A DNA stretch of 64,000 nt from Yuukianura sp. NJ FZ-2021 (GCA_046563655.1 CM102287.1:930001-994000), one strand, 5' to 3'. Numbered from the stretch's first letter, positions 22,628 to 48,872 are shown. The notes: a model not told the origin generated them from the sequence alone. Made by a program: numbers and translations.

Positions 22628-23472
22628 GAAAACGGTAAGGGATCCCCCTTTTTTAGTAAAAGTTGCACGATCTGTCCCCCAGGGGGGGGGGCCTCCCCTT
22701 CTTTCTCACTCTTTTTTTTCTTCTTCTTAGTATGTTTCCCAATTTAAAAAGGGAGGAGGAGAAGGACGATGCTTGAAACCTTTTCCAACTTGTTTCCCTT
22801 TTACTACTTTTCCTTCAACTTTTTTTGGAGTTGAAGGTGGAGTTTTTCTTTTTCTCAAACGTGCTAGCATAGGAGTAGTACGTTTCTTTGAAGGAAATTC
22901 CACACCCTCTTCGTCTTGTCTATCTACTACACCACTTCTTTCCACTCCTCCACTTCCAACTTCTTGGTCTTCATCCAATAAAAGCTGAGACTCATTTGGT
23001 AATGTTTCTATTGCTGTACTACTATTTAAATCAGCTGTAGAATAATTTGAACCCGGTTCAAATGAAATGATACTAGACGAAGCTGGAGATGTTTTTTCTA
23101 AATTAAGCGCTGGAGTAGATTTAGTTGGTGACATGTTTAGGGAACCATAATGTATGGATTTAAATTGCTTTAGTAGTTTTCTTATGGCGTGTGGGGGGGG
23201 GGGGGAAACTAATGCGGATTGAAGGTGCTGATGTACTTCATACCAACCTGGAGGTGGTTGAAACTGTTCTCTTCGTTTTGAATTTTCCAAGTAATATGAA
23301 ATGACATTTATAATATTTGAAAATGGAATTCGGTTTTCGTCAATAACAATTTCAAACTTATCATTCCAAGAAATGTTACATTGTTTCATATGTTTAAACA
23401 ATTTTTTTCCTTCTTTCACTTTTGGAATTTGTTTTAAAGTGTAGGGTTCAGTAACCAAAATCATAGAAGAGT

Positions 23473-24646
23473 AGCTAATGGCAGTGGTAAGGGAAAAGGA
23501 CTTTTTTCAAAATGGCCGCCGTCCTTATCAGCAATTGCATCTGCATATGACGTTTTTTGCTCATGCGCAAAAACGTTTTGTGCGCATTGATGATGACGTC
23601 ATCCCCCCCCACTTCCGCACCCCCATACCCCCCACTATATATCCCTCCCCCTATATCCCGCCCCCCTCCCACGTGACCCCCTAGTCACGTGGCCCCCTCC
23701 CCCAAACCACAAAGTTGAAATTTTAAAAAAAAATTAATTTTTGAAAAAAAAAAATATTTTTTGAAAAAAAAATTTTTTGTAAAAAGTCATTTTTGAAAAA
23801 AATATAATTTCCTGAAATTTGGAAATTGAAAAATGTTTTGAAACTTGGAAATTGAAATTAAAACTAAAGATAAATTTCCCCAGATTACCTTAACTTTAAA
23901 TGTCAAGGTCACGCACATTTTTTCAAGGCCACGCCAATTTTTTTTCAAGGTCATGCGTGCCCTTTGCATTGGCCTATGCATTTGTGTCAAGGTCATGCGC
24001 GCCCATTTGCAATTTCATGTAAATTCTTCAAGGTCATTTCAATTTTTTTCAACGTCAGGAGAGCATTTTGAAATTACAAAGTCCCGGGAACCCTTTGCTG
24101 GGATCCCGGGACAAAGATCAAGTATGGTGCCTGGGCAGTATATTCGGCTGGTCAGAGGATTAGTGGGGCGCCACTCGGCCACTGCTAAAAGAAACCGCAA
24201 ACCACTTGCGGTTAGCCTGTTGGAACAAACCGCAAACCACTTCCGGTCAACTTGCCCGTGCACATGCACGTACAATTCCATTTGAATTTTCACTTTGCAA
24301 AACAACATCAAGGTCAAAGGTCAAACCAAGTGACCCGTCAGTGCTAGACGCGTCACAATAGACTTGTCACTACGCTCGGGGGCGTGGCTAGCCGCCCGAC
24401 TCTTTGCCCAATCAACGTTGAGCATTTCAAAAGTGGGCGTGGCTCGAGGAAATGGAGACATTTGATTGGTCGAGACTTGCAGCTACACTCGGGGGTGTGG
24501 CTAGCTCCAGCCAATCGGCATAGAGCATTTCGAAGGGGGGCGTGGCTTTAGGAAATGGTGACATTTGATTGGTCGACAAGACGCGAGCCCACAACAAAGT
24601 ATTGCCATTTTCTGTTTAAACACAGACAAGTCGCACTGGTGGACTG
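23473..24646 (+). repeat. Left TIR of mini-Polinton
   Basis: Begins AGCTAATGGCAGTGGTAAGGGAAAAGG; imperfect reverse complement of 28593-29754. Confidence 0.9.
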
Positions 24647-25217
24647 GTCAGACCCTCCGCTTGGATTACATCTGGTGGTAGGGGCCGTGAGTTCGATTCA
24701 ATTTGCCCCCAAACAATTTTTATGTAGTTCAGGCGTTTTCGGAATAATAAAAACGCAGGTTTGGTGTTTGTCGCTTGCATGCCAGAGTTGCTTGCGCTTA
24801 CATCACTACATTTAATTGCACGACAGAATCCTCTTGACCGAGAAGCTTTCATGATTTGAAACTGAAACCAACGAAAGTAATTCCGGGGCAGATGCTCGAT
24901 TATGAAGCATAACCCTGACTTTGAATCCAGCCAGATTTTTAAACGTAACAGGCAATTTATATGCCAATACCAACAACTACAGACATCCAAAAACACGACT
25001 TCACTTTTTTTGTTTTGATTTTTTGTTTTTTTTTAGTGTTTGTTTTTGTTTTTTTTAATTTTCTTTTCGTTTTTTGTGTTTTTTTTGTTTTTGTTTTACA
25101 TTTATTTATAAAAGGCATAATTTTTAAATTTTTATATGGGAGATGGATTGCTTTATTTTCCAAATTTTAAAAAGTGTAACAACGAAAAAGACTTAAGAAA
25201 GGGCTAAGAAGATTAAC

Positions 25218-26531
25218 TTAAAAGAATATTTTTTTGTTGGAAGCAAGTCCAGTAATTCTATTTCCGTCAATTTGTAAAGTTTCGTCTTCGATTCCGACGA
25301 CGAGAACCACCAAATCCTTGGTCGTCGGGGTTTCAAAATCAATTTCCAACCCGTATTGCCCAGATCTGCTCGCATTGTATCCGTCAGTCCACAAATCCTG
25401 GACGTCAAATGCAAAAATTGCATTTCCGTTTACAAACTTGTCGTAGGAAATGTCATTTCCTCCAGACTGGCGAGAAACCAACTTGCACAAATTGTGATAG
25501 GCAAGCATGTAATTTTTGTCTTTGAAAATCATTTCTTGGTAGACTAATGGTTTTTGCTCAAATTTTAGCAACAGACGGGTAACACTGTGGGGTTTAAAGT
25601 TGAATGGTGACTTTTCAACTTTTCTTCCTTCGTAAACTTCTCGTTCCAAAATGCCAACTAAAAGAAGTTTTGGGTGGTTGACACTTTGGTAGGCATTTGT
25701 CAAATCAACCGAACTGAGATTTGCCGACACATATTGTAAACACATGTGGGCCTGATCGTACGAATAGTTGGCCACTTTATTTTTGGCAAACCCTTGGCGG
25801 ATCTGAGTCACTACTTTTTCACTGGGATTTACTTGGCGAATATAATACTCGGCCGATTCGACTGTAATTTTGTACTTGGTGGTTGTTGCCGGACCTCGCA
25901 AGCAAAAGGATGCATCGCTCTTTTTAATTTCCAAATTGAATTGAGTGTTGTGCGGGAATAACTTTTTGGTCGTAAATATGCCGAGCAACGGACGCCCAAT
26001 CATTTCAAACGTTTGACTATTTTTTGCCAAGTTTAATCGTGCCTTGTAACTCGGGTTTGTGTCGTCGTAGTTGTCCATGACATCCCCGGCGTAGTAGCCC
26101 ACTTTTGACAGTGTGCTGCATTTGGTTCCAATGCCGTTAAAAAGTTGAGTGAGCATCCAGGCTTCATACGAGTATGCTCGGTATCCTTGAGCAATTATTT
26201 GGCAATTGTTGACCAAAACTTTGAAATCCTCAATGAACGCATGAAAAAATAAATTTTCTGGAGCAATTTTGTCTGCATCGGTGAGCAGAGTTCCATCACT
26301 TTTTTTAATTGAAAACACTAGTTTTAAAAAAGAATCGCTCAGGTCCAAGTAACCATGTGCTGGTTGTTCCACTCGAAAGTAGATTGGATTGCCGTCTGTC
26401 GATGGTGAAAATGGTTTCACTACTAGATAATTGCCCAAAATGGACGACACATCCGTAGTTGGTTTTGAAAATAGGTCAAATTTCGCACTTGTATTGACCA
26501 ATTTCGAATTCACTGGCACATTAACCTCCAT
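25218..26531 (-). CDS. Second, divergent major capsid protein (intact)
   Basis: AKFDLFSKPTTDVS, NPIYF, YLDLSDSFL, ENLFFHAF, YSYEAW, PKLLLVGI, SPFNF, IFAFDV align by eye with the MCP at 19421-20987; ATG at 26531. Confidence 0.85.
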   Translation of the reverse strand: MEVNVPVNSKLVNTSAKFDLFSKPTTDVSSILGNYLVVKPFSPSTDGNPIYFRVEQPAHGYLDLSDSFLKLVFSIKKSDGTLLTDADKIAPENLFFHAFIEDFKVLVNNCQIIAQGYRAYSYEAWMLTQLFNGIGTKCSTLSKVGYYAGDVMDNYDDTNPSYKARLNLAKNSQTFEMIGRPLLGIFTTKKLFPHNTQFNLEIKKSDASFCLRGPATTTKYKITVESAEYYIRQVNPSEKVVTQIRQGFAKNKVANYSYDQAHMCLQYVSANLSSVDLTNAYQSVNHPKLLLVGILEREVYEGRKVEKSPFNFKPHSVTRLLLKFEQKPLVYQEMIFKDKNYMLAYHNLCKLVSRQSGGNDISYDKFVNGNAIFAFDVQDLWTDGYNASRSGQYGLEIDFETPTTKDLVVLVVGIEDETLQIDGNRITGLASNKKIFF

Positions 26532-26676
26532 TTTAGCACAAAAACACGCACGAGATGTTGCTCCGATGGTGGCCAAATGACAACTGAGCACTATTTCCAA
26601 GGTTTAACGTGTAAATTTTGGGGTAGCACTGCGCACTAGACACGTGTTTACTCGTCGAAATGCAAACGCAGACTGA

Positions 26677-27084
26677 CTAATTGTTGTGAAATAGGCTCCC
26701 TTTTATAGCTTTTTGTGCCAAATTTTGCAATTTTGCAACAATTTTTCTCCTTTTTCGCCCACTTTTGGCAGATTTTTCTGGTTTTCTGCTATTGTCTTTA
26801 GAAATTTTCATTTTTCTGCAATTGTTGCAAAGATTTTCGTCTGAATCTGTACTGCTCGACCCATTTTTGTGTAAATTTTGCTTCAAATTTGACACTTTTT
26901 TGGGCCGCGATCGCTTTCTGACCTTCTTTTTGGGCAATTCCGCGGACATTTTTTGAACAATAGCGGGCGATGATATCGTTTTTGTGGCTAAACTTGCATT
27001 GTCGCACTTGTTTTCGCCATTTTCTGGCGTCAAACTGTCACTATTGTTGCTAAAATCAGAGTTTCCTGGTTCGTCAACTTCCAT
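26677..27084 (-). CDS. Hypothetical small protein (acidic N-terminus, Lys/Arg-rich, CxxC)
   Basis: 135-aa ATG ORF between penton and MCP, with a start context and upstream motif like those of the MCP. Confidence 0.6.
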   Translation of the reverse strand: MEVDEPGNSDFSNNSDSLTPENGENKCDNASLATKTISSPAIVQKMSAELPKKKVRKRSRPKKVSNLKQNLHKNGSSSTDSDENLCNNCRKMKISKDNSRKPEKSAKSGRKRRKIVAKLQNLAQKAIKGSLFHNN

Positions 27085-27270
27085 TTTTACACAAAAAATT
27101 CACTAGCTGTTGCTTCGGCGAGCACAAAGTTGATACTGACGACGTTTTTAAGGGTTTTGGTGTAAATTTTACACTGTTTTGCACTGTTTTCGTGTTGCTT
27201 GGTCGCAAGTCAGACGTCAACTGAACAGATTTTGTCTTTTGTGGCCGTTAATAACTGGTTTTTGGACAAT

Positions 27271-28341
27271 TTAGGTGGATTTTCTGACGTGAAGAACAAG
27301 TTGGGTTGCGCTGTGTGCTTCAGGAATTGGTGCCAGATTTTCGTCCAAAAGTTGAACGTAAATGGAATTGATCATCGACTGTCCTTTTACCGCAAAATAA
27401 CGCGGCACATTGACTTCCAAGTCGACTGGTTTGCCATCCTGATCGCCTTGTGGGAATATTCCAATCAACGGCAGCACCTTGTCTCCAAACTGGGTATATT
27501 CCGCAAGATCGCACACGACAAGGAGATGTTTTGACGTCACTTCGAGATCAATTTCGGCCTTGGCTGGATTCGTTTGGCTAAATCCCTTGAATGCGGCTCC
27601 CATTGGCAGTCCAAATATTTTGTCCAAAAGTGGCGAGAGGGTCGTAATGTAATTGGGTGTAGATTCTCGGGTGTATTTGAGTACAGCCTCGTCCTCAGAG
27701 TACTTGAATGTAATTTGAAATGGAGCCAAGGCGGCGTTCATGGCCTGAATCAGGCCTTCCACCGTCTTTTCTTTTGGTTCTACCACGGTTGCCAAGTTGA
27801 CCTTGTCTTGGAAAATGTGGAGCGTCATGTTAATTGTTGGATCAATTGCGTCAAAAACAGCTTCGGAATATTCATGGCCATGCGTCACTCCATTTGGGAA
27901 CGTGTTGGTATCAAAGCCAAAGGCTCGAGCATACTCGGCCGTCATGGTAACCACGTGGTCCTTTTCGTCGTTGGTAAGTGAAAAGACCTTGTTTGTGTAT
28001 GATATGACAATTTTTCGGTCAAATTTTTTCAATTCCTTGTTGACATGACCGAAAAACTTTATTATTCCATCTATTTTGGAGATTGTAACCGTCACCTCCA
28101 AGTGCTCGGTTACGTTTATGACATTGTCACCCTCACTGTGGCCAAAAATGTTACGTTGGGTTTTGGGTGCTGGAGTGTAGTGCATTCCAGAAATGGCAAC
28201 CTCCAGTGGTTGCTTCCAGCCATCAAGCACAGGATCCAAATTGGCACGAAACTCGTTTGGTTTATTTTCTGGGTAAAACCTGCTGTTTAAAGCACTATCC
28301 ACGATAATGTAACGCGAACTGGGTTTAACAACGACGGCCAT
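27271..28341 (-). CDS. Second, divergent penton (intact)
   Basis: YIIVDS..NSRFYPENKPNEFRANLDP.L....EVAI and LLVVCDLAEYTQFGDKVLPLI..I.VQLLDE..LVLHVR; ATG at 28341. Confidence 0.82.
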   Translation of the reverse strand: MAVVVKPSSRYIIVDSALNSRFYPENKPNEFRANLDPVLDGWKQPLEVAISGMHYTPAPKTQRNIFGHSEGDNVINVTEHLEVTVTISKIDGIIKFFGHVNKELKKFDRKIVISYTNKVFSLTNDEKDHVVTMTAEYARAFGFDTNTFPNGVTHGHEYSEAVFDAIDPTINMTLHIFQDKVNLATVVEPKEKTVEGLIQAMNAALAPFQITFKYSEDEAVLKYTRESTPNYITTLSPLLDKIFGLPMGAAFKGFSQTNPAKAEIDLEVTSKHLLVVCDLAEYTQFGDKVLPLIGIFPQGDQDGKPVDLEVNVPRYFAVKGQSMINSIYVQLLDENLAPIPEAHSATQLVLHVRKST

Positions 28342-28433
28342 TGCTGACGGCGATTTGAACAATAACAAATTAACACTTTCACTTAAACTTTTGTAGGAGA
28401 AGGTAATGTTACCGACGCAGAAGCTAGTGAAAC

Positions 28434-28488
28434 ACTGAGCCGCTTGTGGCAACGTCGCGGCCTTATATAGGCACAGCCGATGACGTCA
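28434..28488 (-). promoter_or_regulatory. Pol II core promoter of penton 2 (CRE, TATA, Inr)
   Basis: TGACGTCA 28481-28488, TATATAA 28469-28463, TCAGT 28438-28434 about 31 nt downstream of the TATA. Confidence 0.6.
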
Positions 28489-28592
28489 CCGTAAAAAACT
28501 GCAAAAAATGCAGGGGTCGCGTGGCAAGGGGTGAAGACGGGACAGTCGCAATGTAACCACCGACAAGTAAGCATGACCATTTTGTGTATAAA

Positions 28593-29754
28593 CAGTCCGC
28601 CCGGGCGACTTGTCTGTGTTTAAGCAGGAAATGGCAATACTATATTGTGGGCTCGCGTCTTGTTGACCAATCAAATGTCTCCATTTTCTGAGGCCACGCC
28701 CCTTTTTGAAATGGTAAACGCACATTGGCCAGAGTTGGCCACACCCTCGAGTGTAGCGGCAAGTCTCGACCAATCAAATGTCTCCATTTCCTCGAGCCAC
28801 GCCCACTTTTGAAATGCTCTACGTTGATTGGCTCAAGAGTCGGGCGGCTAGCCACACCCTTGAGCGTAGTGACAAGTCTATTGTGACGCGTCTAGCAGTG
28901 ACGCGTCACTCGGGTTGACCGTTGACCTTGATGTTGTTTTGCAAACCAAGTGAAAATTTAAATGGAGTTGTACGTGCATATGCACGGGCAAGTTGACCGG
29001 GAGTGGTCTGCGGTTTCTTTTGGCAGACTAACCGGAAGTGGTTTGCGGTTTGTTTTGGCAGTGGCCGAGTGGCGCCCCACTAATCCTCTGACCAGCCGAA
29101 TATACTGCCCATGCACCATACTTGATCTTCTTGGTCCCGGGATCCCAGAAAAGGGCTCCCGGGACTTGACAATTTCAAAATGCTCGCTTGACCTTGAAAA
29201 AAAAATTGAAATGACCTTGAACAATTTACATGAAATTGCAAATGGGCGCGCATGACCTTGACACAAATGCATATGCCAATGCAAAGGGCACGCGTGACCT
29301 TGAGAAAAAATTGGCGTGACCTTGAAAAAATGTGCGTGACCTTGACATTTCAAGTTGGGGTAATCTGGGGAAATTTACTTTTTAGAAATTTGAATTTTTA
29401 ATTTTTTTTCAATTTTAAAATTTCAAAAAAATTATTTTTCTGTAAAAAATATTTTTTACTTGAAAATTTCAAAAAAAATTCCATTGTTGTCAAATTTACA
29501 TTGTTGCCAAATTTCAATTGTTGTTGTAATGGGGGCGGGGTCACGTGGGGGGGGCGGATATAGGGGGTGGGATATAAAGTGGGGGGGGGGGGTATAGGGG
29601 GCGGGGGTGTGGGGGGTGCGGAAGTGGGGGGGGGTGACGTCATGCGCAAAAATGTTTTTGCGCATGAGCAAAAACGTCTTATGCAGATGCAACTGCTGAT
29701 AAGGATGGCGGCCATTTTGAAAAAAGTCCTTTTCCCTTACCACTGCCATTAGCT
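28593..29754 (-). repeat. Right TIR of mini-Polinton
   Basis: Ends CCTTTTCCCTTACCACTGCCATTAGCT, followed by the TSD. Confidence 0.9.
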
Positions 29755-30167
29755 AAGAGTTTCCAGAATTATTACTGCTTAAATTTGCACTCGTCGCTCG
29801 TTCTTTTTTTCTGTCCACATTTTTAACAAGAATAGGTTGGTTGGCTAAAATTTTACGTCTCTCGTGTAACCGTTTCGCAAAGTCATGATAAAGTAAAGCC
29901 TTGATGTCATCAGGAATATCCTTTGCACTCAAAATTTGTTGTTTACCAAATTGCAACTGTTCCCCTTTACTAGTAGTAGTAGTAGGAGTCAACTTTGAAT
30001 CTAAACTTTTTGTCAAATCAACTCCACTGTTGCCGCTGCTGCTGCTGCTGCTGCTGCTTACTTCAAATGTAGGGTCAAACTTTTTTTTATATTCAGCTTC
30101 CGAAACTAATCTCAACCTCTTCATTCTGTCAATTCCTCCTCCTCCTACCTATTCCCTTCTCACTGCT

Positions 30168-30501
30168 TTATTTTAAAATTCTGGAAAGTACTGGTGGAAT
30201 TATTGATGCAAGGAGAATTGGAAGGATAGCTCCACCGCGTTGTGTTAAAAGCTTCTTTTTTCTTGATAATGAAGTTTTTCTTCGTTTTACAATTGAAAGA
30301 ATTGTCTTCTTATGCGGTTTCAATTTTGAAATTGTTTTACTACTCACTCCAAAGTTTTTTTTTATAAATATTAAAAATGCATTCACAAATAGACTCAATT
30401 TCAGGCTTTGTTGCGTTTTTTATTAACCCTATTCGTTGTTCTTTTGCACAAGTTGACAAATATTTCAAAAAGTCACAATTTTTTCGTAATCTTAGAGACA
30501 T
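30168..30501 (-). pseudogene. Small Polinton virion protein (QxGG + hydrophobic tail), frameshift in an A-run
   Basis: MSLRLRKN..SICECIFNI / ..KLKPHKK..RKKKLLTQRGGAILPILL; the shift near 30360 may be a homopolymer error. Confidence 0.7.
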
Positions 30502-31613
30502 GATGTTCCCAGCGGCATGTCAACTTTTCAAATGAACAAACTTTTCCAAATTACTAAATCCTTTATAAGAATTTACATAGTCAAAACATTTGTTCAGTCA
30601 CCTTTCAACGCCCCCTTTTGACATTTGAACTTAAGTTCCCCCACTCCCCCTCAACTACTTGTCATCATGCCGCAACGTCACCTCAAACTTGAAAAAAAAA
30701 TTAGGCAGCAGTATGTCAACCCTAAAAATAGTTTTGCTTTTACTGGACAACACCAAATTCTCAAAACTCTACTTAAATCTAAAGAAAATAAACTCTCAGC
30801 ATCCACACTTTCTAAGGTTGTGGGAAACGCTCTGTCATCTCTACCGGCATATAATTTACACGTTCAAGCTAGAAAACGTTATCCCCGGCGAAAAGTGTTT
30901 GTTCCGTCAATGAAGTATCAGTATTGTATTGATTTGGTTGACCTTTCCAAGTACAAAGACACAAATGGAGGATATAGATATTTGGCTACCTGCATTGATG
31001 CTTTTTCAAAAGTTGCAGACGCTATTCCACTCAAAAATAAAACTGGAAAACTTTTAGCTATGTTTGGGAGATTTGAGTCGACTCACAGGTTTAAGGTTTT
31101 ATTTTAGGATTTTTAAGCTTTCAACAAAATGTCTTTAGTTTCTTACAATTCAATTTTACATTTCCTATCTTGTTAGCATACACGCGTCGCAATTCTTATT
31201 TTTAGACTACCTCTTTGTAGTGTCGTGTGCAAAACCGGACTGTGTCCAGCACACTTTTCAATTTCAAAATTCAGTCTTGTACTAGAGTCCTTTTGTAGAA
31301 GTCTCTCTGAAAACTTCAATTGTAACTTGGTCCGTCGATCTCTCAAATAGAGTCGACTCTTTCTTTCAATCAGTAAATAAAGTTAATTAAGTAGAAGAAT
31401 TGGAGGTCAACTTGGAATCATTGGTCATTGTCAGTTCGGGATAGCACACAGGGTCGTCCCTTCGTTTCTGCAGTGTCAACCGGGTTCTTTCAATCCACTT
31501 TTTACTTAGATTAGACTTTAATTGCTCATTTTCATTCAAAATAAGATACAGTCGGATTCATCCATCATTTTTTGGTCCTAATCGAACCAGATTTCATTAG
31601 TTAAGTTCCAATC

Positions 31614-32996
31614 ATGGGCGATTTACTAAAATTGATTAATTCCAGATCTGCAATTAAAACGAAGCTTAAGAGGATTGAGGGCGACCTCACCTCCAGACAA
31701 CAGGCTCCTGACAGTGTCACCATCGCTCAAGTCAAGGTCACGTCGGAAGAGATCACGCGCATTGAAACCAAATATGAAGGTATTCAAGAACAGATTGTCA
31801 ACGCAATTACAACGGACGAGGATTTGGTCGTCCAAATTGAGGCTGGGGAACAAATCGACAGTCTTCTACTGTCATGCAAGATCATTCTGGCCGATTTTAC
31901 TGCCATGCTTAACCCACCCAGCTCAAATGCAAGTACATTGTCGTCGTCATCTGTACAAGGCGCTGTGTCGACACAAGTCATTGACCAGTCACAAGGTAAT
32001 GTGTCGACACAATCCAGAGTCCGTCTTCCAAAATTGGATCTGCCTAGTTTCGAGGGAAACTATGATGACTGGATGACCTTCCGTGACCGCTTCTCTTCAT
32101 GCATCGTCAACAACAGCACACTGTCAGGCAGCGAAAAGCTCCAGTACCTCGTCTCGTGTGTCAAGGGAGAAGCAGCCATAGGGATTTCCAATTTCCCTAT
32201 AACAAACGACAGTTTCGATGCTGCTTGGAAAACACTACAGGACAGATACGAGAACACACGAGAGATTGTCTTCGCTCTAATCAGGAAACTCATGCAGCAG
32301 AGCAAAGTAACTTCAGAAAATGCATCTCATTTACGCAAATTAGTGGATACAACGATGCAATGCTTGAGATCATTGGAGAACTTGGGTCGACCCACTGACC
32401 AGTGGGATGATCTCATCGTCTACACATTAGTCGAGAAAATGGACAATGACTCACGCCGTGAATGGGCAAGGCAGCTTCATGGAACTGAAATGCCTACTAC
32501 AAAAGATGTCATTGACTTTCTGGAAGACCAGATACGCGGACTCTTGGCCAGTTCCTTATCTACTGCAAAGGTTAAGTCGGATAAGACCACACACAACAAG
32601 AAAGGCTCTCATGCAGCAAATGAAATGAAGTCGACTTCATGTCGAAAGTGTGATGGGTCACATCCCATATTCAAATGTCAACAATTCATTGACCTGGTCG
32701 TCCAGGATAGGCTCAATTTTGCCAAAGGAAATAATCTTTGTTTCAATTGTCTATTTCGAGGTCATGGCTCAAACAAATGCCTATCCAAGGGTACTTGCCG
32801 TCACTGTGGACGCAAGCACCATACCTTGCTCCACTTGGACAAGGTCAGCGGAGGACAACAACCTCCCACCCAACAACCACCTGCCACCACGCAGCAACCT
32901 ACGGTCTCCAGCAACCATGCTAGAGGAAAGGGAGTCATCTTGGCAACAGCTCTTATTCAGATGGAAGACAGCACGCTTTTTGGGTCGTCCCAATGA
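31614..32996 (+). CDS. gag: BEL/Pao Gag
   Basis: RLPKLDLPSFEG..W..F.D.F, KLQYL, three Cys/His clusters (CRKCDGSH, CFNCL..GH, CRHCGRKHHTLLH). Confidence 0.9.
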   Translation: MGDLLKLINSRSAIKTKLKRIEGDLTSRQQAPDSVTIAQVKVTSEEITRIETKYEGIQEQIVNAITTDEDLVVQIEAGEQIDSLLLSCKIILADFTAMLNPPSSNASTLSSSSVQGAVSTQVIDQSQGNVSTQSRVRLPKLDLPSFEGNYDDWMTFRDRFSSCIVNNSTLSGSEKLQYLVSCVKGEAAIGISNFPITNDSFDAAWKTLQDRYENTREIVFALIRKLMQQSKVTSENASHLRKLVDTTMQCLRSLENLGRPTDQWDDLIVYTLVEKMDNDSRREWARQLHGTEMPTTKDVIDFLEDQIRGLLASSLSTAKVKSDKTTHNKKGSHAANEMKSTSCRKCDGSHPIFKCQQFIDLVVQDRLNFAKGNNLCFNCLFRGHGSNKCLSKGTCRHCGRKHHTLLHLDKVSGGQQPPTQQPPATTQQPTVSSNHARGKGVILATALIQMEDSTLFGSSQ

Positions 32997-35900
32997 ACCT
33001 ATTGCCAGATCATCTGAATTTGGATGGGTGATTTTGGGACCAGTGAATATTCAAACGAACGCCAACCATGTCCAATCATCGGTTTCGTCAATCTGTGTTC
33101 ATTCAGCTCACGTGGGACTGGATGAAACTCTTCAAAGATTCTGGGAGCTGGAAGCTGTGTCGACACACCCAGTCCTAACTGAAGAAGAGGCTCAAGCGGA
33201 AGAACACTTCCGGAACAATCACTCTCGTCTTGAAGATGGAAGGTATGTCATTCCCTTGCCATTCAACAATCGCATTTCAGAACTGGGTCACTCTCGACAC
33301 GCTGCTGAGAGTCGACTCTACCAAGTGGAAAGAAGGCTGAACAAGGATGCCTTAAGGAGGAAACAGTACAATGAGTTCATGCATGAGTACGTAGCATTGG
33401 GACACATGGAAGAGGCTCCAATTCATACTGAAACTGAGTCGTCGCCAGTCACCACTTACTACTTGCCTCATCACTTTGTGCTGAAGGATGATAGCGCGAC
33501 GACCAAACTCCGTGTAGTCTTTGATGGGTCGTCCCAGTCTACTTCAGGCGTAAGTCTAAACAAGTGTCTGCTGGTTGGACCCACTGTTCAACCAGACCTT
33601 TTTACTCATCTTTTGAGGTTTCGCCAATTTTCGGTTGCCATTAAGGCCGACATCGCAAAGATGTATCGGAAGTTTTTAGTCTCTCCACAGGACATGGACT
33701 TCCAGCGGATCCTGTGGCGACACAGCCCTGACACTCCAATCAAAGAGTACAGGCTGAGAACAGTGACCTACGGCACTTCTGCTCCTTTCTCTGCCACCAG
33801 GGCTCTGAGTCAACTCAGCGAAGATGGGAAGGAGACATTTCCAATCGGTTCTGAAATTCTGAGGAACAATTTCTATGTGGACGATCTCATGAACAGTGTG
33901 GACTCAGCCGAGTCAGCCATCACAATTTACAAAGAGTTGGATGAGCTACTTGGGTCGTCCCAATTAGAGCTCCGTCAGTGGGATTCTAATTGCAAAGAGC
34001 TTCTAAACGTCATTGGTGAGTCTAAGGTCAAAGGTAAAAAGACTCATGATCTAACTAAATGTGAAGTGTCTAAGGCTTTGGGAGTCCAATGGGACTCTGA
34101 CCTTGACATTCTTTCTTTCCCGAGTCACAAGTTTCAGGTACCCTACGTCACGAGGAAGTCAGTCTTGAGTGAAGCGGCACGAATCTTTGACCCGCTCGGG
34201 CTACTGGCTCCTTTCACGGTTCGGCTTAAGATATTCTTCCAACAACTCTGGTCTCCATGCGAAGGAACCGGAAGGAGGTTATCTTGGGACGACCCAATTC
34301 CAGAGACTCTGTTCCACCATTGGGAGGAGTACCGTAAGGGTATAGCTAAATTGAATTCAGTTTCACTTCCTAGGTGCCTGTCTCCAGCAGGATTTACACA
34401 TCAAGAGCTTCATACGTTCTCAGACGCCTCAGAGAAAGCATACGCGGCAGTAGTCTACCTACGAAGCTTTCTTCCCTCTGGAGTCGTCTCCATCCGACTG
34501 GTCGCTGCCAAGACCAAAGTAGCTCCGTTGAAGGCAACGAGTCTTCCACGTCTTGAGCTTTGCGGAGCGCATCTCGCCTCCAAACTCTTCACTTCTGTCG
34601 TCGAGGCACTTAACTTGAAGTGTCCAGTCCATTTCTGGACTGACAGCGAGATCACGCTCACGTGGATCTCCTCCACCTCACGACGCTGGACAACATTTGT
34701 GGCCAACAGAGTGGCTCAGATTCAGGAATTGACGCCCGTTGGCTCATGGCATTTCATTCCAGGGCATCTCAACCCAGCCGACTGTGCCTCCAGAGGCATC
34801 CAAATCGAGGATTTGGTCGACCAAGAGCTGTGGTGGGACGTCCCAATTCTACAGAGTTCTGAATTTCCTAAGTTTGAAGGATCTAAGCCTATTTTCGATT
34901 CAGAACAATTGGAAGAGAGAAAAGTCAAAATTACCATGTCTAATTTTCTTTTTGATTCTGTGTTTCAGCGTTTTTCAATTTTGGATCCTTCTCAAGTCGA
35001 GTCGACTCAGTTCAACCCATTTGCGGATTCCTTCGGTCTCATTCGCGTCGGAGGAAGAATCATGCGTGCAGAAGTTCCACACGAACAAAAGCACCAAATC
35101 ATTTTGACTGCCTCATCTCACTTAACGCTGCTGATTGTGAGACACTTCCACCGAAAGCATCATCATGCTGGGAGTCGACTCCTTCAGGCACTCATCAATC
35201 GCGAGTTTTGGATTCTACGAGGAAAGAATCTCATCAAATCGGTCGTCCGGTCATGCCTCGTCTGTCGTCGATGGAGAGGCAAAGTAGCGGAGCAGATGAT
35301 GGGCAACTTGCCCGCTCCGAGGGTCAACCCTTCCCCTCCATTCACAAACACGGGGGTGGACTACGCAGGGCCATTCAGCCTAAAAACAATTAAAGGGCGA
35401 GGAGGTAAAATATTTAAAGGATACTTATGTGTTTTTGTCTGTTTTGCAGTTAAAGCTGTCCACTTGGAAGTTGTGTCGTCACAAGACACCGACTCATTCA
35501 TCGCCACATTTAAGAGATTCATATCTCGACGTGGAGTACCATTGAACATGTACTCAGATTGCGGAAGCAATTTTGTGGGAGCATCTAAAGAGCTCAAAGA
35601 GTATGTGGCTGGGTCGACCCAAAGCCCTTCGTTTTTGTCTTTTATTTCAGGAGAAGGGATAACTTGGCACTTTAACTCGCCAGCAGCACCTCACCATGGA
35701 GGACTCTGGGAATCTGCAGTAAGACAGGCAAAATTCCATTTGCATCGGGTCGTGGGAAGTACAACCCTGACCATTGAGGAATTCTACACTATCTCCAGTC
35801 AAGTCGAAGCAGCCCTAAACTCGAGACCATTGACCCCAATGAGCGACAATCCAGAGGACTTTGACATTCTCACTCCTGGTCACTTCCTACTGGGTCGTCC

Positions 35901-36294
35901 CATTCTGGCTTTACCTCAACCGGACTACACACCAATACAAGAGAACCGTTTGTCACGCTGGCAACGCACAGAGAAGATGTTCCAGGATTTTTGGAATCGG
36001 TGGAGCACGGAGTACCTCACCACATTGCAAGGACGTGGGAAGTGGAGATCTCTACACAAGGACATTGCCGTTGGAGATCTTGTGGCCATCAAGGACCCCA
36101 ATTTGCCACCAATGAAGTGGAAACTTGGACGTGTTTCATCAGTCTCCCCAGGAGCAGACGGCAAAGTCAGAGTCGTCTCTGTGAAAACGGCCACAGGGGA
36201 ATTTACTAGACCAATTGTCAAGTTAGTCCCGCTACTGGAAAATGATCAACTGGATCCCCCCATTACAACGTCAACTTTTTCGTCCAAGTCGTAA
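32975..36294 (+). pseudogene. pol: BEL/Pao Pol (RT-RNase H-integrase), protease core deleted
   Basis: YLPHH, KLRVVFDGS, DIAKMY, FYVDD, FSDAS, PRLELCGA, NPADCASRG, GVDYAGP, SDCGSNF, GGLWESAV; no DSG motif remains. Confidence 0.9.
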
Positions 36295-37674
36295 TTTACA
36301 ACAATTTTAACTTTACCATTAGGTTTACAATTAGTTTTACAACTAGTTTTGCAGATAAGTTTTATTCATTGATTCATTACTCTTCTAGGTTATTCAAGTA
36401 CAAGCCCTATGCTTCGTACTTGAGTCGACTCAGATCATTCAACGCCTCACTCATTTTCTTTTTATTTCAGATTCCTATACTGGATGAAGCGATTGTTTTG
36501 AGCACTCAGTAGCATCAACAGGAGGTCTAGCAAATTGGGATAACCCTTAGTTTTGACGGGGAGTAGGTCACGGTTCGCCCTGCCTCATAGTCCATCCGAC
36601 CTGTTGACTGCTGCTGGTGTGTTTCAAAATTCAGTCTTGTACTAGAGTTCTTTTGTAGAAGTCTCTCTGAAAACTTCAATTGTAACTTGGTCCGTCGATC
36701 TCTCAAATAGAGTCGACTCTTTCTTTCAATCAGTAAATAAAGTTAATTAAGTAGAAGCATTGGAGGTCAACTTGGAATATTGGTCATTGGTCAGTTCGGG
36801 GTAGCACACAGGGTCGTCCCTTCGTTTCTGCAGTGTCAACCGGGTTCTTTCAATCCATTTTACTTAGATTAGACTTTAATTGCTCATTTTCATTCAAAAT
36901 AAGATACAGTCGGATTCATCCACCAAGCTACAACTTTACAAAAAATATTTAAAAAAAGAGGCGTGCCTAAGCAGTTGCAGTGCGATCAGGGATCTGAGTT
37001 TATTAATAAGAATGTCAAAACTATGCTTAAAAAAGTAGGAGTAAACTTGTTTAATACCCGTTCTGAACTTAAAGCTGTAATAGTTGAACGGTTTAACAGA
37101 ACTCTCATGAATAGGATTGCAAAGTACATGACTCATTCAAATAGTACAAAATACACTCATGTTTTGCAAAATCTTGTTGAGGCTTATAACAATTCCTACC
37201 ATTCCTCAATAAAAATGACTCCAAATCAAGTCAACAACGAAACAAAAACTCAAGTTTTCTTAAATTTGTACTCAAAATATACATCTAGACTCAAATTTCC
37301 AAAGTCAAAACTGCTTCACGTTGGTGATAAAGTACTTATCAGTAAAGTTAAATCCACTTTTGCTAAAGGCTACGCCCAGTCTTGGAAAAATGAAATTTTT
37401 ACAATTTCAAATATTTATAATACAAATCCAATCACCTTTCAAATCCAAGACCAAAAGGGGGTTTCAATTTTTGGAATATTTTACAGGGAAAAACTTTTAA
37501 AAGTTTCACCATTTCTAGCTTGAACTTGATCGAGGAATGAGCTCTTGTAGTTTTTGTTCTATTTGGCAAACATTATCCAATTTTTTCTTCAAAAGAAATA
37601 ATACAACTACGATAACCGTGTGTAAAACTTTTTCCTGCAATTGTAACTTAAATAAACTTGGAAGGCAACGTACT

Positions 37675-38092
37675 ATGGACAAACCAGCTACTTCTCCAAC
37701 TACTTCTACATTTGCTACCGAAATGGATACATATATTAACACTGTCATCCACCCAACTCCTCAACCTACAACTGAGCCTGAATCTGAGCAAACTTGTCGC
37801 AGAACTGGAGGTGGAAAAAATTAGACGGCAATCTACACCTAATCAACGTGCAAAGAAGGTTACATCCCTTTCTATGGTCGTTGAAGTCCGGAAAGAATTT
37901 CCTAAACCATTTCCTCCACCTCAAATTAACTTGGAAGACGGTTGGCAACTTTTTTTTGGAAATGAAAACGGATTTTCTGGAACAACACACTTGCACATTA
38001 AGAATCAATTTGATCAAAGTGTCGGAGTCGCTTTGCCCGTTGAGTTATACGACTGTTTGATGGAAGGACTTTTGAAACTCAAAAGATTGTAA
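37675..38092 (+). CDS. Polinton small hypothetical protein(s), possibly PC4-like, probably frameshifted
   Basis: Overlapping ORFs 37537-37824 and 37658-38092 between integrase and ATPase; the C-terminal pattern resembles the PC4 fold only loosely. Confidence 0.35.
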
Positions 38093-38108
38093 CTGTAAGC
38101 TTTTATTA

Positions 38109-38753
38109 TTATCTCTTCATATATACTATACAAGAGGATGAGTCTGGAAACACATTTGATCTAAAACGAAAATTGTCATCCTGATTTTGAGATAAATCAA
38201 TAAACAAATAACTATTGGGCTTGTTTTTTGTTGCGTCTTCATATGCTTCTTCCAACAACCCGTTTGACTTTCCGCCATTCATTTGCCTTGCCAAGTATTT
38301 TATAATTGTTGTATCCCTGGGATTTCGAAACAAAACTACATATTTACTATTTAAAGTTAGGTTTCTACATCCCTTATAAAAAAAATTTTGCACTGTTATA
38401 ATTAAACTAAGAGAGCGATGATGAGAGCCTCTGGTGGCCATGGCACAGACTTCTTTCGAGTTGGCAATAACCTCCATGAAGTCATCTAAAATCACCATTG
38501 TTTCCACTTGATTTCCTTCTGCCACATCCAAATTCTCCATCCCTTGCTTAAATTCAACTTTATGATGTAATCTCAATGTCTCCGCAAAACTAGGCTCATC
38601 CTCACTGTAGCAATAAATAATACGCCTAATTTTTGGTTCAATTACTTCATCTCTCCTTTCAATCAATTGTCTAATCAGTGTACTCTTTCCACTTTGTGTA
38701 GGTCCACTCAACACCATCACAAACGGATGAATCAATTCAGGCCTGAACTCCAT
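38109..38753 (-). CDS. A32/FtsK-like DNA packaging ATPase
   Basis: HPF..LSGPTQSGKS (Walker A), VILDDFM (Walker B), GSHH, TVQN, LNSKY..LFRNPRD. Confidence 0.92.
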   Translation of the reverse strand: MEFRPELIHPFVMVLSGPTQSGKSTLIRQLIERRDEVIEPKIRRIIYCYSEDEPSFAETLRLHHKVEFKQGMENLDVAEGNQVETMVILDDFMEVIANSKEVCAMATRGSHHRSLSLIITVQNFFYKGCRNLTLNSKYVVLFRNPRDTTIIKYLARQMNGGKSNGLLEEAYEDATKNKPNSYLFIDLSQNQDDNFRFRSNVFPDSSSCIVYMKR

Positions 38754-38839
38754 CCTATCCGAACTTCTGTACGCAAATGAAGTGAAACATATTCAAAACA
38801 TGATTTATTAAATTTTTATTAAACTGGTTTTTTTTCCTT

Positions 38840-40686
38840 CTACACAACACTATCTTGAAACTCTTTAATCTTATAATGTCCAAATCTAAGGGATTCAATT
38901 GGTGTCAAATAAAAGGCCTTGTCATCTACCGCAGACAAGCTCTGCTTTTTCATTGTTGTTGTGTACAGTTTGTGATTTAAACTACGAATAGTATTCATTG
39001 ATACAAATCTACAGCTACCTTCCTCTAATACATCTTTATAATCTTTGAAGCTTAACTGAGACTCCAGCACTGCAGTCACAGTACCTTTTGCTTTTTTAAT
39101 TTCTCTCTCCTCTCCGTCACGTGTCACCAGCTTCAAAGAATATAGTTTTGGTTTTAGAGCCACAACTTCAGAAATTATGCACTCTGGACTCTCATCTTTG
39201 TAGTATCCCCCTTCTCCAGCATGCTTGTCACTGTACAAGTGTCCTAGTAGCTTATCACTTTTCTTAAAATTTGACGTATCAAATAGCCCTTCGTCTTGCC
39301 TTACACTAGCATAAATATCTGCATAAACATCTTCTGTCTTAATATATAACATAAAACTATCAGTATCTGTAAATATTAGACGCATATTACTACCATAACG
39401 TGGTTTCAGTTTCTTATAGTATACTTCATACATTTGTTTTTTACTATCGTCTAACACAGTAAGCCCTACAAATATTGGCTTATTTAAACACACAGACAAC
39501 TTTTTCATTTGAAATAGAACACAGTCATCATGTATTATTCTAATATCTTCTACTGTAGGCTTTTTACCATACTCCAAAATCTTCTCTTTTGATAGGGCAA
39601 CATTAATTCGCTTATATTTTCTAACATTTTGAAAGGTTTTTCCAACTAAAATGTTTCCCAAAGCTTTGTAGGCTTTCTTGTCTACTTCATTTGTTGACCC
39701 TTGGCGCCTTTTTATACACAACTCACAGTATACACGGAACAATGGTGCTTGTCTGAACCTCAAAGCACAGTGTACTTTTGTCAACTTCAAACCAAGTTCT
39801 AAAAAAAGTTTTAGTAATCTGTAGTGTACAACATAATTCTTTTTATCTTCTAAACTTCCCACCAACTTTGTCTTTTTTTGAGTTGAAGACTTCGCTCCTG
39901 CGTTATACATAACATGATGTGTGTAGGATGACAAATCTGAAAACTGAATAGATCGCCGCTCAACTGCAAGTGGGTAATCGTTGTGCAAATCATGCAGCTC
40001 CTTTGGATACGTCAAATCTACTTCCAAAATTAAACCTTCTTCCGCTTCGTCGTCCATACCCCGAATCATCTTTATGACATCGTCCAGCTTCACTGTCCTT
40101 TGCCACAAGCATAAATCCCACCGGAAGTCTTTCCATGGTACAAAATTTCGAAGTTGGTGGGCGTACAGCACGTTTGCATCCCACAAACATAAATAACTTG
40201 TTGGTAGCGTAGGGTCATAGGATGAACCTAAGAATTTGTTGTTTGCTTTTGCATAGCGCAAGCCAACGCTACAAATACCACCCCTAATTCCTCTCTCAAT
40301 AAACGTATATTGATCCAAATCTTGCAAATATTCAAAACCAACACTGCCACATAGTATAGCAGCATCATATGCTATACCAGGCAAAGTGTAATAGTGAGCA
40401 GGGTCTAAACGGAAATCTGCTAAAAATCTTTGCCTAAAGTTTTGAAAACAGTCAGCAAGAAGTGTGACATCTAGAGATACGTATAGGTTGTGGTAATCCC
40501 TCAAAGTTTTACAACCAAATTCTTTCCAAACACGTTGTGCATGTTCAAAGTCTTCATCACTAATTCCTTTCCCTGTTAAGTCACTCACCCAAAGACATTT
40601 CGGCGGTAAACTTGTCTCATCAAACTTTTCAAAATTGTCAAAATATGTATAAGGATACACTCCTTTTCGAAACAACATATTAATAT
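38840..40686 (-). pseudogene. polB: Polinton pPolB copy 2, 5'-truncated, catalytic motifs intact
   Basis: KGVYPY, RGIRGG, WDANVLY, KALGNILVGK, FTDTDS, KPKLYS, KKAKG; the apparent start MSNKC derives from the adjoining LTR fragment. Confidence 0.92.
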
Positions 40687-40760
40687 TTTTACACTTGTTG
40701 GACATGTAAAGTCATGCCATAAGCGAGTGACTTTAATTCAAATTGACGAGATGTCAATTT
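40687..40760 (+). repeat. 74-bp fragment of the MMP-Gypsy LTR
   Basis: Matches 13532-13605 with one mismatch. Confidence 0.9.
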
Positions 40761-48260: not shown

Positions 48261-48872
48261 TAGGATTCTGGAGACTATATAGTGAAGTACTGCGTCGGCT
48301 GGTTGCGACATCAGTCATTGGAATTTCGTAGCATTTGGTTCCCTGATTCCGGGAATCGGATAGATTCGTGGGGTGTCGGATTGAGATAAGGGAGTTCAAG
48401 GAACAAGGAAAGAACAAAAGTCCCAAGATCTGCCGTGGAAGGCGGATATTGATTTCCGTGGTTCTGGGAAACAACGTCGTAAAGAGTCGGTGGAAGTGGT
48501 GGAACTTGGAGAGCATTGACAGAAAGCGACTCATCCTCATAAGCAACAGGAAATAAAGCACTCAAGTGCAACTGCAAGTGCAACAAAAAGCACGGAAGGG
48601 TGAGAAGTGGACTCATCTTACCCCGGTTGACGTAAGTGGATAATGGTGGCACTGTACCCACCAAAATCCGACTTATTAATTATTTGTAATGTGTATTATT
48701 GCTAAAAAATTTGATAGTACATCGAAATCTGAACTTCGTGAACACTGGTTGAATTTATTGACCCGGTTCCAAACTTTTCTTTTTCTAATAACAGAGATTG
48801 CCCGAACTCCATAAAGTAGTTTCTTGAGGGTTTCGTTCACTGAGTCAGTTAACGTTCAATAGGAGTTGAGGA

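Follow-up and report, generated by a model that had tools for sequence, protein, structure and literature searches.

A nested element with Polinton-type ends

Within a 64,000-nt window of Yuukianura sp. NJ FZ-2021 (GCA_046563655.1 CM102287.1:930001-994000; the window is the whole stretch of DNA analyzed, and all coordinates count from its start), we found a 6282-bp mini-element (23473-29754) with three intact minus-strand open reading frames (ORFs) of 356, 135 and 437 aa between long terminal inverted repeats (TIRs) (Table 1). Read directly from the plus strand, the left junction consists of AAGAGT followed by AGCTAATGG from 23473, and the right junction of CCATTAGCT ending at 29754 followed by AAGAGT, giving the AG...CT ends and the perfect 6-bp target-site duplication (TSD) that an earlier note on this DNA had claimed.

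Table 1 Features of the mini-element and of the ORF that it interrupts
Feature	Coordinates	Strand	Basis
Interrupted host-Polinton ORF, C-terminal half, 245 aa (P0005)	22727..23464	-	frame equal to N-terminal half
TSD, left copy, AAGAGT	23467..23472	.	read directly; same as 29755-29760
Left TIR, ~1174 bp, begins AG	23473..24646	+	inverted-repeat search, BLASTN, global alignment
Putative poly(A) signal AATAAA, ~61 nt 3' of capsid stop codon	25152..25157	-	sequence reading
Major capsid protein gene (P0001), 437 aa, intact	25218..26531	-	phmmer, neighborhood, Pfam, conserved columns
Motif AAAATTTACAC, 78 nt upstream of capsid ATG	26609..26619	-	exact copy
Small basic protein gene (P0003), 135 aa, pI 10.1, K+R 22%	26677..27084	-	position, composition
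Motif AAAATTTACAC, 76 nt upstream of ATG of small basic ORF	27160..27170	-	exact copy
Penton-like protein gene (P0002; minor capsid, Polinton 'PX'-type), 356 aa, intact	27271..28341	-	sequence links, position
Putative penton core promoter: TGACGTCA (28488-28481), TATATAAG (28469-28462), initiator-like TCAGT (28438-28434)	28434..28488	-	sequence reading
Right TIR, ~1162 bp, last bases CT	28593..29754	-	inverted-repeat search, BLASTN, global alignment
TSD, right copy, AAGAGT	29755..29760	.	read directly; 6/6 match
Interrupted host-Polinton ORF, N-terminal half, 123 aa (P0223)	29756..30124	-	no Pfam or PHROGs match

The insertion splits an ORF of the surrounding (host) Polinton, whose upstream half (30124..29756, minus strand) stops at a TAG formed by the last two bases of the element and the first base of the duplication. 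With the element and one copy of the duplication removed, the next codons are TCT and then the ATG (23464-23462) that opens the 245-aa half; this codon arithmetic on the two junction sequences places both halves in one frame, in agreement with the earlier statement that the split gene rejoins in frame. The ends, the TSD, the TIRs and a split host ORF in a single frame therefore identify a discrete insertion.

Polintons, or Mavericks, are polintoviruses, and those associated with animals have also been named adintoviruses. AG...CT ends are said to have been recognized as a Polinton hallmark by Kapitonov and Jurka in 2006, and the element carries the 5'-AG...CT-3' termini of this superfamily. 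Long TIRs and a 6-bp duplication, which PMC3014272 cites as Polinton hallmarks, are likewise both present, supporting its description as a Polinton-type insertion.

The two TIR arms pair in BLASTN (23473-24646 with 29754-28593) at 84.6% over 1198 columns including gaps, an inverted-repeat search of the element yields 9 blocks of 72-97% identity, and a global alignment contains 1020 matches, 109 mismatches and 104 gap columns in 25 gap events, corresponding to a substitution divergence of 9.7% between the arms. The TIR length of ~1.17 kb given earlier is thus real, with the correction that the arms are clearly imperfect, only about 85-90% alike. Their outermost 48 bp are identical, and mismatches are rarer in the termini (3/99) than in the TIR interior (74/787; Fisher p=0.035). 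ORFs lying within the repeat are non-coding: the differences between the arms are spread over the codon positions (8/10/7) and are accompanied by frameshifting gaps. The inner part of the left TIR holds two ~103-bp units (repeat family D20) with CCAAT and GC-box-like motifs. Neither BLASTN nor a search with the terminal 15-mer (≤3 mismatches), which occurs in the window solely at the element's two ends, revealed a second copy of the element within the window; the terminal 20-mer had no exact match in viral_contigs, and the two that it had in bacterial genomes are no more than chance would give.

The element carries a Polinton structural gene block

The product of the capsid gene has 2803 relatives at E≤1e-3 (phmmer) and keeps 42/54 conserved family columns. 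Its relatives adjoin both pPolB and a protease-like ORF in related loci L007 and L008 and in the host Polinton, the protease-like ORF in L007 being adenovirus-protease-like. Based on sequence and gene neighborhood, we firmly assign this protein to the Polinton capsid protein family. A double jelly-roll fold is tentatively predicted, since 6 of 78 family members match the Pfam domain DJR-like_dom (PF21738) at E≤1, 3 of these at E≤0.01; against PDB, the best hexon match of the capsid (E=0.27-0.68) is not significant.

A C-terminal match to the ORF immediately upstream of the capsid gene connects P0002 with L002 (E 3.4e-9), L010 (5.8e-8) and L009 (1.1e-4). The host penton (P0006) matches the same L002 ORF (E 7.5e-6) and can be aligned with P0002 at the N-terminus, and a P0002 family profile found 62 proteins. 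P0002 had no match in Pfam or PDB; from its position and its links to ORFs upstream of capsid genes we describe it as penton-like, with a putative single jelly-roll fold. Between these two genes, P0003 corresponds in position, as judged from sequence and placement, to the basic core-like protein found between the penton and capsid genes of related Polintons: a basic ORF of 89-162 aa also lies there in the host Polinton and in L006, L007, L008, L009, L010 and L014, and the C-terminal ...KGSLF of P0003 resembles the ...KGSAF of L010, the locus whose capsid fragment has the highest identity to P0001 among the loci compared (48%).

The resulting order of penton, small basic ORF and capsid gene is the usual Polinton order, which PMC4028283 gives as penton, one gene, capsid gene, and the three-gene set is a conserved structural block of Polintons. 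Upstream of the penton gene, a consensus-like core promoter, with a TATA-to-initiator spacing of ~33 nt and a 95-nt leader before the ATG at 28341, may drive its expression, and the AATAAA downstream of the capsid gene would be suited to act as its poly(A) signal. We also noted a motif, AAAATTTACAC, that occurs three times without mismatch, in each case inside the element and on the minus strand; at ≤1 mismatch the whole window has 11 matches vs. 4.3 expected. A regulatory role is conceivable. Penton, small basic and capsid genes thus form one contiguous and apparently expressible cassette.

Enzyme genes are absent from the element

By definition, a Polinton has genes for a protein-primed polymerase and for a retrovirus-like integrase (PMC5499653). 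Pfam searches of the element's ORFs found no DNA_pol_B_2, no rve integrase and nothing beyond the capsid module, tblastn with the protease and other Polinton ORFs gave no match inside the element at E≤0.1, and tblastx of its spacers returned low-complexity matches only, with no gene remnants. An FtsK-like packaging ATPase and an adenovirus-like cysteine protease were likewise absent from the element (Pfam, tblastn). In a self-BLASTP of all 207 window ORFs, the two window polymerases paired only with each other, and the only Polinton-type rve pieces in the window (30667-31107 and 36903-37520) both lie outside the mini-element. There is also no room for enzyme genes, because ~2.3 kb of repeats and 2.8 kb of ORFs leave only ~1.1 kb. 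These results uphold the earlier account of an element that carries capsid-module genes without pPolB, integrase, ATPase or protease. It therefore lacks the polymerase and rve integrase of an autonomous Polinton/Maverick, and lacks the last three components of the core of virophages and polinton-like viruses (capsid, penton, ATPase, protease, replication gene); having its own capsid protein and no replication genes, it shows, as far as sequence can tell, the gene content expected of a satellite virus.

The element and the surrounding Polinton have capsid genes of different lineages

The surrounding element, previously taken for a full Polinton, proved to be decayed and truncated, with a capsid gene in 3 pieces, a truncated polymerase and an inserted BEL/Pao retrotransposon. 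It has an FtsK-like ATPase (38109-38753) and a protease (~19086-19424), and the window's two Polinton polymerases are both parts of decayed elements.

Comparison of the two elements confirmed that their capsid proteins are divergent: the pentons share 23% identity over 56 aa and the capsid proteins 26% over 117 aa (the only BLASTP match, given by one of the three host pieces), and in the capsid tree the element and its host fall on opposite sides of a split with 100/100 support. These data support placing the element's capsid genes in a different clade from those of the host Polinton; because they are of a different lineage, the element is not a deletion derivative of the surrounding Polinton. 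Its genes also differ from host genes in GC content (0.38-0.45 vs. 0.32-0.37), and its ORFs in CpG observed/expected ratio (0.94-1.02 vs. 0.51-0.75). The element looks young and functional, judging by its CpG content, its putative promoter and AATAAA, and its conserved capsid columns. Its capsid has a terminal branch of 0.78 in the tree vs. 0.29-0.49 for its sisters. Directly after the capsid gene, a protease-like ORF is found in 5/17 related loci and also in the host.

Intact genes between diverged repeats

We modeled neutral decay of the 2784 coding bases, assuming arms that were identical at insertion and using their 9.7% divergence. Under this model ~4.9 nonsense changes and 5.3 frameshifts are expected, with P(none) ~4e-5, so that on this premise the genes must have stayed intact as the arms diverged. 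On the same premise, the intact genes do not match the neutral decay of the capsid genes that the earlier note had listed as counting against its proposal. The test indicates only that the arms differed from each other already when the element inserted, or that selection has acted on the genes somewhere. If a full-length, active element whose repeats were imperfect had recently undergone a deletion, the outcome of this test would look alike.

Origin of the element

From the observed structure, gene content, lineage difference and intactness, we infer mobilization in trans, an origin by deletion and use of the promoter, and we favor, at somewhat better than even confidence, a non-autonomous Polinton/Maverick of a second lineage that was integrated in trans after losing its enzyme genes. 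Most probably, an autonomous Polinton of the element's own lineage, located outside the window, would have lost these genes, with the cis-acting ends (long TIRs, conserved termini) and the structural cassette (penton, small basic core-like protein, major capsid protein) being kept. A retroviral-type integrase supplied in trans would have integrated the element, producing the 6-bp duplication, and its copying would rely on the protein-primed polymerase of a helper acting at its termini. A priori, it is more likely that the element derives by deletion from an autonomous Polinton of its lineage, as yet unseen, than that it is a satellite lineage. The window itself contains no autonomous partner with matching termini. 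If the starting gene order had a protease-like ORF directly after the capsid gene, two deletions would be needed, a less simple course than a single one.

That only whole genes are left, with all else cleanly gone, is as compatible with a selected design as with an accident. The element could be a capsid-encoding satellite virus of Polintons, an established lineage that is capsid-only by design and makes its own shell; we regard this as rather unlikely, and hold similar doubts about the associated proposal that a helper Polinton supplies protein-primed replication, packaging ATPase, maturation protease and integrase. The three structural genes, intact and equipped with promoter and poly(A) signals, the lack of leftover pieces of other genes, and capsid genes foreign to the surrounding Polinton all agree with such a virus, as do termini better conserved than the TIR interior, which is expected of divergence in an active lineage. 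The intactness of the genes despite the arm divergence also points this way, but is equally given by the recent deletion described above. Against a satellite stand the single copy in one 64-kb window, the somewhat longer capsid end branch, and a 6.3-kb genome that would underfill a shell sized for Polintons of 15-25 kb (PMC6431247). Moreover, the same termini, and probably near-identical capsid genes, would be expected in its natural helper, so that the element's own capsid would be redundant.

With a single copy seen in the window there is no sign that the 6.3-kb form itself moved, and a full-length element may have inserted first and lost its enzymes in place. In that case a full-length autonomous Polinton of the second lineage would have inserted itself and then undergone one or two in-place deletions, a course of events to which we attach only a low probability. 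Such deletions are common within nested transposon clusters, this neighborhood is heavily rearranged, and a self-encoded integrase would account for the duplication without a helper; yet both 1.17-kb repeats, the promoter and the three genes are untouched and no gene stump is left, two separate clean deletions would be required if a protease followed the capsid gene, and there would have been little time, because the CpG content suggests a young element. A mis-assembly is highly improbable, as is recruitment by the host of capsid genes that lie between repeats by chance: nothing specific speaks for either, the window contains no N bases, the perfect TSD, matching termini and in-frame split ORF form a precise transposition signature, and the genes have viral-type compact spacing and their own putative promoter.

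Relation to known systems

The element resembles Polintons in TIRs, TSD, AG...CT ends, capsid family, penton-like protein and gene order, and differs from them in lacking polymerase, integrase, ATPase and protease and in its size of 6.3 kb, compared with a typical 15-25 kb (PMC6431247). Non-autonomous transposons are defined as keeping cis-acting ends and lacking mobility enzymes (PMC6431247), and the element fits this definition. Usual internally deleted derivatives contain gene stumps or no genes, whereas this one contains a complete three-gene virion cassette alone; we found no description of a capsid-only non-autonomous Polinton in the papers searched.

Classical satellite viruses, such as satellite tobacco necrosis virus, have a coat protein gene of their own but need a helper to replicate. 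The same division of labor, own capsid and borrowed replication, would hold here, but classical satellites are small RNA (or ssDNA) viruses that do not integrate, whereas the element is dsDNA with inverted-repeat ends, integrated in an animal genome and known purely as genes, and would also borrow integrase, packaging ATPase and protease. Transpovirons are linear, ~7 kb long, bounded by TIRs and dependent on another virus; they are not known to encode capsid proteins and travel inside giant-virus particles. They are thus small and TIR-bounded like the element but, unlike it, without known capsid genes. Among bacterial satellites, cf-PICIs have retained genes for integrase, replication and packaging and take only their tails from the helper, a dependency opposite to that proposed here, and have no homology to the element. 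That capsid-forming phage satellites make their own capsids is stated in 10.1101/2025.02.11.637232. Virophages and polinton-like viruses, likewise small and dsDNA, share the element's capsid-module supergroup, but carry ATPase, protease and their own replication genes, none of which the element has, and their helpers are giant viruses or poxviruses rather than Polintons; some are hyperparasites in animal-associated systems, including with entomopoxviruses of insects, as PMC11296320 describes.

Implications

Two views of the element are thus open: a hitch-hiker stripped of most genes, or a DNA satellite virus of a kind not described before. To carry nothing but an intact shell kit with its promoter would be sensible only if shells are made now or were made very recently. 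To our knowledge, virion formation by animal Polintons has so far been argued from sequence alone. We think it possible, if doubtful, that the element represents a linear-type dsDNA satellite virus of Polintons in an animal genome, with its own, possibly smaller, capsid and hijacking helper enzymes through the conserved termini; if so, animal Polintons would produce virions and have parasites of their own. Should the 6.3-kb form exist in many copies as a lineage on which selection acts, no capsid-encoding satellite of a Polinton would have preceded it; it would parallel, as dsDNA, the classical satellite viruses that encode only a coat protein, and would be indirect evidence for Polinton particles in animals. 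Were it a one-off deletion, it would be a natural minimal construct, showing which cis sequences (termini, promoter) travel together with the three genes.

Junctions and insertion of the unit

We read both junctions of the unit directly on the plus strand, where AAGAGT (23467-23472) is followed by AGCTAATGG from 23473 on the left, and CCATTAGCT, ending at 29754, is followed by AAGAGT (29755-29760) on the right. These sequences therefore define an insertion of 6282 bp that starts with AG, ends with CT and carries a perfect 6-bp duplication on both sides. Nine inverted-repeat blocks (72-97% identity) were found at its ends, and the two terminal arms (23473-24646 vs. 29754-28593) are 84.6% identical over 1198 columns by BLASTN; in a global alignment, 1020 columns match, 109 mismatch and 104 are gaps (25 gap events), the substitution divergence is 9.7% and the outermost 48 bp are identical. 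ORFs lying inside the arms were ruled out as real genes, since the differences between the arms are distributed 8/10/7 among the three codon positions and some of the gaps shift the frame.

The frame of the interrupted host ORF was checked by codon arithmetic, without any joined sequence. Its upstream half (30124..29756, minus strand, 123 aa) runs into a TAG made up of the unit's last two bases and one base of the duplication; with the unit and one duplication copy taken out, it continues through TCT to the ATG at 23464-23462, which starts the 245-aa downstream half. The junction sequences and alignments thus bear out the AG and CT ends, perfect AAGAGT duplication and long inverted repeats described in the earlier note, and the arithmetic across both junctions agrees with its claim that the host ORF rejoins in frame. 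So exact a signature of transposition lies well outside what chance would produce. Neither BLASTN nor a terminal-sequence search revealed a second copy inside the 64-kb window, and the terminal 20-mer had no exact match in viral_contigs; two matches of this 20-mer in Bacteroidota genomes were dismissed, since this number equals the chance expectation for 596 Gb.

Coordinates of the genes and candidate promoter elements of the unit and of the host Polinton's capsid region (window positions)
Feature	Position	Strand	Remarks
P0001, major capsid protein	26531..25218	minus	intact ORF, 437 aa
P0002, penton-like protein	28341..27271	minus	intact ORF, 356 aa
P0003, small basic protein	27084..26677	minus	intact ORF, 135 aa, pI 10.1, Lys+Arg 22%
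TGACGTCA	28488-28481		promoter of penton gene; consensus
TATATAAG	28469-28462		promoter of penton gene, consensus
Host capsid gene, three pieces	21077..20550, 20365..19760, 19756..19424		
Host protease-like ORF	19424..19086		after capsid gene

A three-gene structural block

Searching 1.84 billion representatives with phmmer, we found 2803 relatives of the unit's major capsid protein P0001 at E<=1e-3, of which 1155 reach <=1e-10 and 29 reach <=1e-30; identity to P0001 does not exceed 46% for the best of them. A word-based search recovered 5 proteins out of 4884 candidates. Relatives were confirmed in 17 of 87 pattern matches from metagenome contigs and in none of 27 from viral_contigs, and the family profile also detects the fragmented capsid gene of the Polinton in which the unit lies. 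DJR-like_dom was the only Pfam family matched by more than one member (3/78 at E<=0.01, 6/78 at E<=1). Among the related metagenome loci, L007 carries its family member on the same strand as two DNA_pol_B_2 ORFs (E 9.2e-6 and 1.1e-8), and in both L007 and L008 the ORF directly after the capsid gene has a weak, sub-threshold match to adenovirus protease (E 0.008 and 0.0015). On account of this family membership and these neighbouring genes, we predict P0001 to be a Polinton major capsid protein. A PDB sequence search with P0001 and its profile returned nothing significant (adenovirus hexon, at E=0.27-0.68, was not counted), and a cluster look-up of the relatives gave no informative names. Of the 54 columns conserved in the family P0001 retains 42, which places it 16th from the bottom among 78 members, and its end branch in a 30-row maximum-likelihood tree is 0.78, compared with 0.29-0.49 for its sisters and a median of 0.71, to which it lies near.

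In three related loci, L002 (E 3.4e-9), L010 (5.8e-8) and L009 (1.1e-4), the ORF immediately upstream of the capsid gene is matched by the last 80 residues of the penton-like protein P0002. P0006, the protein in the host Polinton's penton position, matches the same L002 ORF (7.5e-6) as well as one in L014 (4e-20), and P0002 and P0006 can be aligned at their N-termini. Searching with a profile of P0002-type proteins added 62 proteins, among them gene models without annotation from a sea cucumber and a spider; P0002 had no match in Pfam, PHROGs or PDB (the last also negative with its profile), and a single-sequence word search returned nothing. The placing of its gene, one gene away from the capsid gene, is the arrangement described by Krupovic et al. 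(PMC4028283).

The slot of the small basic protein P0003 is occupied by a basic ORF of 89-162 aa and pI 10.3-11.8 in the host Polinton and in six related loci (L006, L007, L008, L009, L010 and L014). The C-terminus of P0003 resembles that of the ORF in L010, the locus whose capsid fragment has the highest identity to P0001 (48%) among those in metagenome contigs. Taken together, these assignments of P0001, P0002 and P0003 indicate that the unit holds a complete, contiguous structural block of a Polinton.

Absent functions and candidate expression signals

Pfam searches detected no polymerase, integrase, ATPase or protease domain in the unit's ORFs, and its proteins had no significant match in Pfam or PHROGs. 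The protease and other Polinton ORFs of the related loci matched the host Polinton and nothing in the unit at E<=0.1, and scans for tRNAs and Rfam families were negative across the unit. Gene remnants hidden in its four non-coding spacers were ruled out, as only low-complexity matches turned up there.

By consensus, the sequence ahead of the penton gene and just inward of the right repeat reads as a textbook core promoter, in which TCAGT follows the TATA element at a distance of ~33 nt. An 11-mer, AAAATTTACAC, occurs only inside the unit, in three exact minus-strand copies (26609-26619, 26869-26879 and 27160-27170), and is found 76 nt upstream of the small-ORF ATG and 78 nt upstream of the capsid ATG; it could serve both genes as a late-promoter or processing signal. 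Both ORFs that it precedes start with Met-Glu-Val. AATAAA follows the stop codon of the capsid gene. The use of the promoter, the 11-mer and AATAAA as signals is inferred from consensus only.

Lineage, age and origin of the unit

The unit and host pentons share 23% identity over 56 aa, and their capsid proteins 26% over 117 aa, with a BLASTP match for only one of the three host pieces. In the 30-row tree the two capsid proteins lie on opposite sides of a split with 100/100 support. Judged by these comparisons, the capsid genes that the unit carries are foreign to its host Polinton. Two claims of the earlier note hold up: that the capsid proteins diverge from those of the host Polinton, which the identities and the phylogeny confirm, and that the unit contains a capsid module only, lacking pPolB, integrase, ATPase and protease, which agrees with the domain and ORF searches and the spacer scan. 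Base composition also separates the two elements, with a GC of 0.38-0.45 and a CpG observed/expected ratio of 0.94-1.02 in the unit's ORFs vs. 0.32-0.37 and 0.51-0.75 in the AT-rich, CpG-poor host genes; with both values above the host's, the unit looks younger than the host Polinton.

We additionally calculated the decay expected of 2784 coding bases at half the arm divergence, assuming arms identical at insertion and entirely neutral decay. Neutrality predicts ~4.9 nonsense changes and ~5.3 frameshifting indels, and the probability of observing none is ~4e-5. Either the arms thus differed before the unit inserted, or selection has acted on the genes. Within the arms, the outer 100 bp are better conserved than the interior (3/99 vs. 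74/787 mismatches, p=0.035), a pattern that fits divergence in an active lineage whose termini are constrained.

The reading we lean towards, at somewhat better than even chances, is that the unit belongs to a second Polinton lineage, is non-autonomous and was integrated in trans. A Polinton integrase supplied in trans would have integrated it, which would account for the 6-bp duplication; a helper's protein-primed polymerase, working on the conserved termini, would copy it; and the unit itself would most likely have arisen when an autonomous relative, not seen here, lost its enzyme genes. That the unit represents a true satellite lineage encoding its own capsid seems unlikely to us: its clean three-gene design, its intact signals and the decay test would all suit such a lineage, but would also suit an active element with imperfect repeats that recently underwent deletion.

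We give no better chance to the alternative that a full-length element inserted here and was then trimmed in place, which asks for one or two clean deletions leaving both repeats, the promoter and each of the three genes intact. The host, like 5 of 17 related loci, has a protease-like ORF directly after its capsid gene, and this gene order argues for two deletions. That the unit is an artefact or a host recruitment we regard as highly improbable, set beside a transposition signature of this precision.

In a separate observation on gene order (L003, positions 1759-3254), the capsid gene of L003 is identical to P0014, in the clade adjoining that of the unit, and the 1.5 kb after it holds no stop-to-stop ORF of at least 100 aa in place of a protease gene. 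This hints that the capsid gene may be the last gene in some relatives.

Comparison with known systems

In its workings the unit would resemble a non-autonomous transposon. Strictly defined, Polintons do not include it, as the two defining enzymes, both searched for, are absent; nor is it a virophage or polinton-like virus, since an ATPase, a protease and any replication gene are all missing from it. In its division of labour, the closest analogy is with the RNA satellite viruses that encode only a coat protein, and the unit may likewise work as a satellite virus does. cf-PICIs are a functional analogy with a dependency opposite to that of the unit; that they make their own capsids is described in 10.1101/2025.02.11.637232. 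Hyperparasites of the supergroup do exist in animal systems, in the form of polinton-like viruses found with entomopoxviruses (PMC11296320). Our literature search, which did not extend to the founding paper, the main review or Repbase, found no capsid-only non-autonomous Polinton and no Polinton satellite. The structure of the unit is real and tidy, and we found no description of it in the literature searched.

The host Polinton and its surroundings

The earlier note took the surrounding element for a full Polinton, a description that does not stand: its capsid gene is broken, its integrase split and its polymerase truncated, and no terminal repeats were found. Its pieces occupy 19086-23464, 29756-31107 and 36903-40711. 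The rve integrase core is divided between ~30919-31053 (profile positions 7-50) and ~36930-37061 (positions 53-98), and within the integrase sits a BEL/Pao LTR retrotransposon (31262-36925). Its LTRs, ~306 bp long, are 95-99% alike, and its gag-like ORF (460 aa) and pol ORF (1213 aa) are both intact; the point where the detected LTR starts leaves ~200 bp next to the integrase break unassigned. The host polymerase lacks its N-terminal third (approximately the first 335 residues) relative to another Polinton-type polymerase at 10343-13233 (plus strand), which is 50-60% identical to it and carries one frameshift. The N-terminal region of this second polymerase matches Pfam Endonuclease_7 (E 1.1e-6); a zinc-finger model also matches there, though below threshold. 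A 74-bp direct repeat with sharp boundaries occurs in two copies that are 99% identical, one lying 300 bp after the second polymerase gene (13532-13605) and the other exactly at the truncation point of the host polymerase (40687-40760); it could be a rearrangement junction or the end of a small element.

Amid transposon debris between the second polymerase and the host capsid block lies an intron-less 406-aa matrix metalloproteinase ORF (15944-17164, plus strand; Matrixin E 2.7e-43, with a weak hemopexin match), which could be a retrogene or Polinton cargo. Exon-like ORFs adjoining the truncated end of the host Polinton (41129-41523, minus strand) match N-terminal asparagine amidohydrolase (E 2e-16) and probably belong to a flanking host gene. 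The window also contains BEL/Pao elements and a fascin domain, and this content of BEL/Pao, matrixin, fascin and asparagine amidohydrolase fits an animal genome. Further downstream, a 933-aa ORF (54840-57641, minus strand) with no significant Pfam match is packed with 39-nt and 291-nt tandem repeats (55.0-56.0 kb), and inverted repeats of foldback or MITE-like type are clustered at 41828-43157, 46654-48243 and 48870-49738, with arms of 130-480 nt that are 94-97% complementary.
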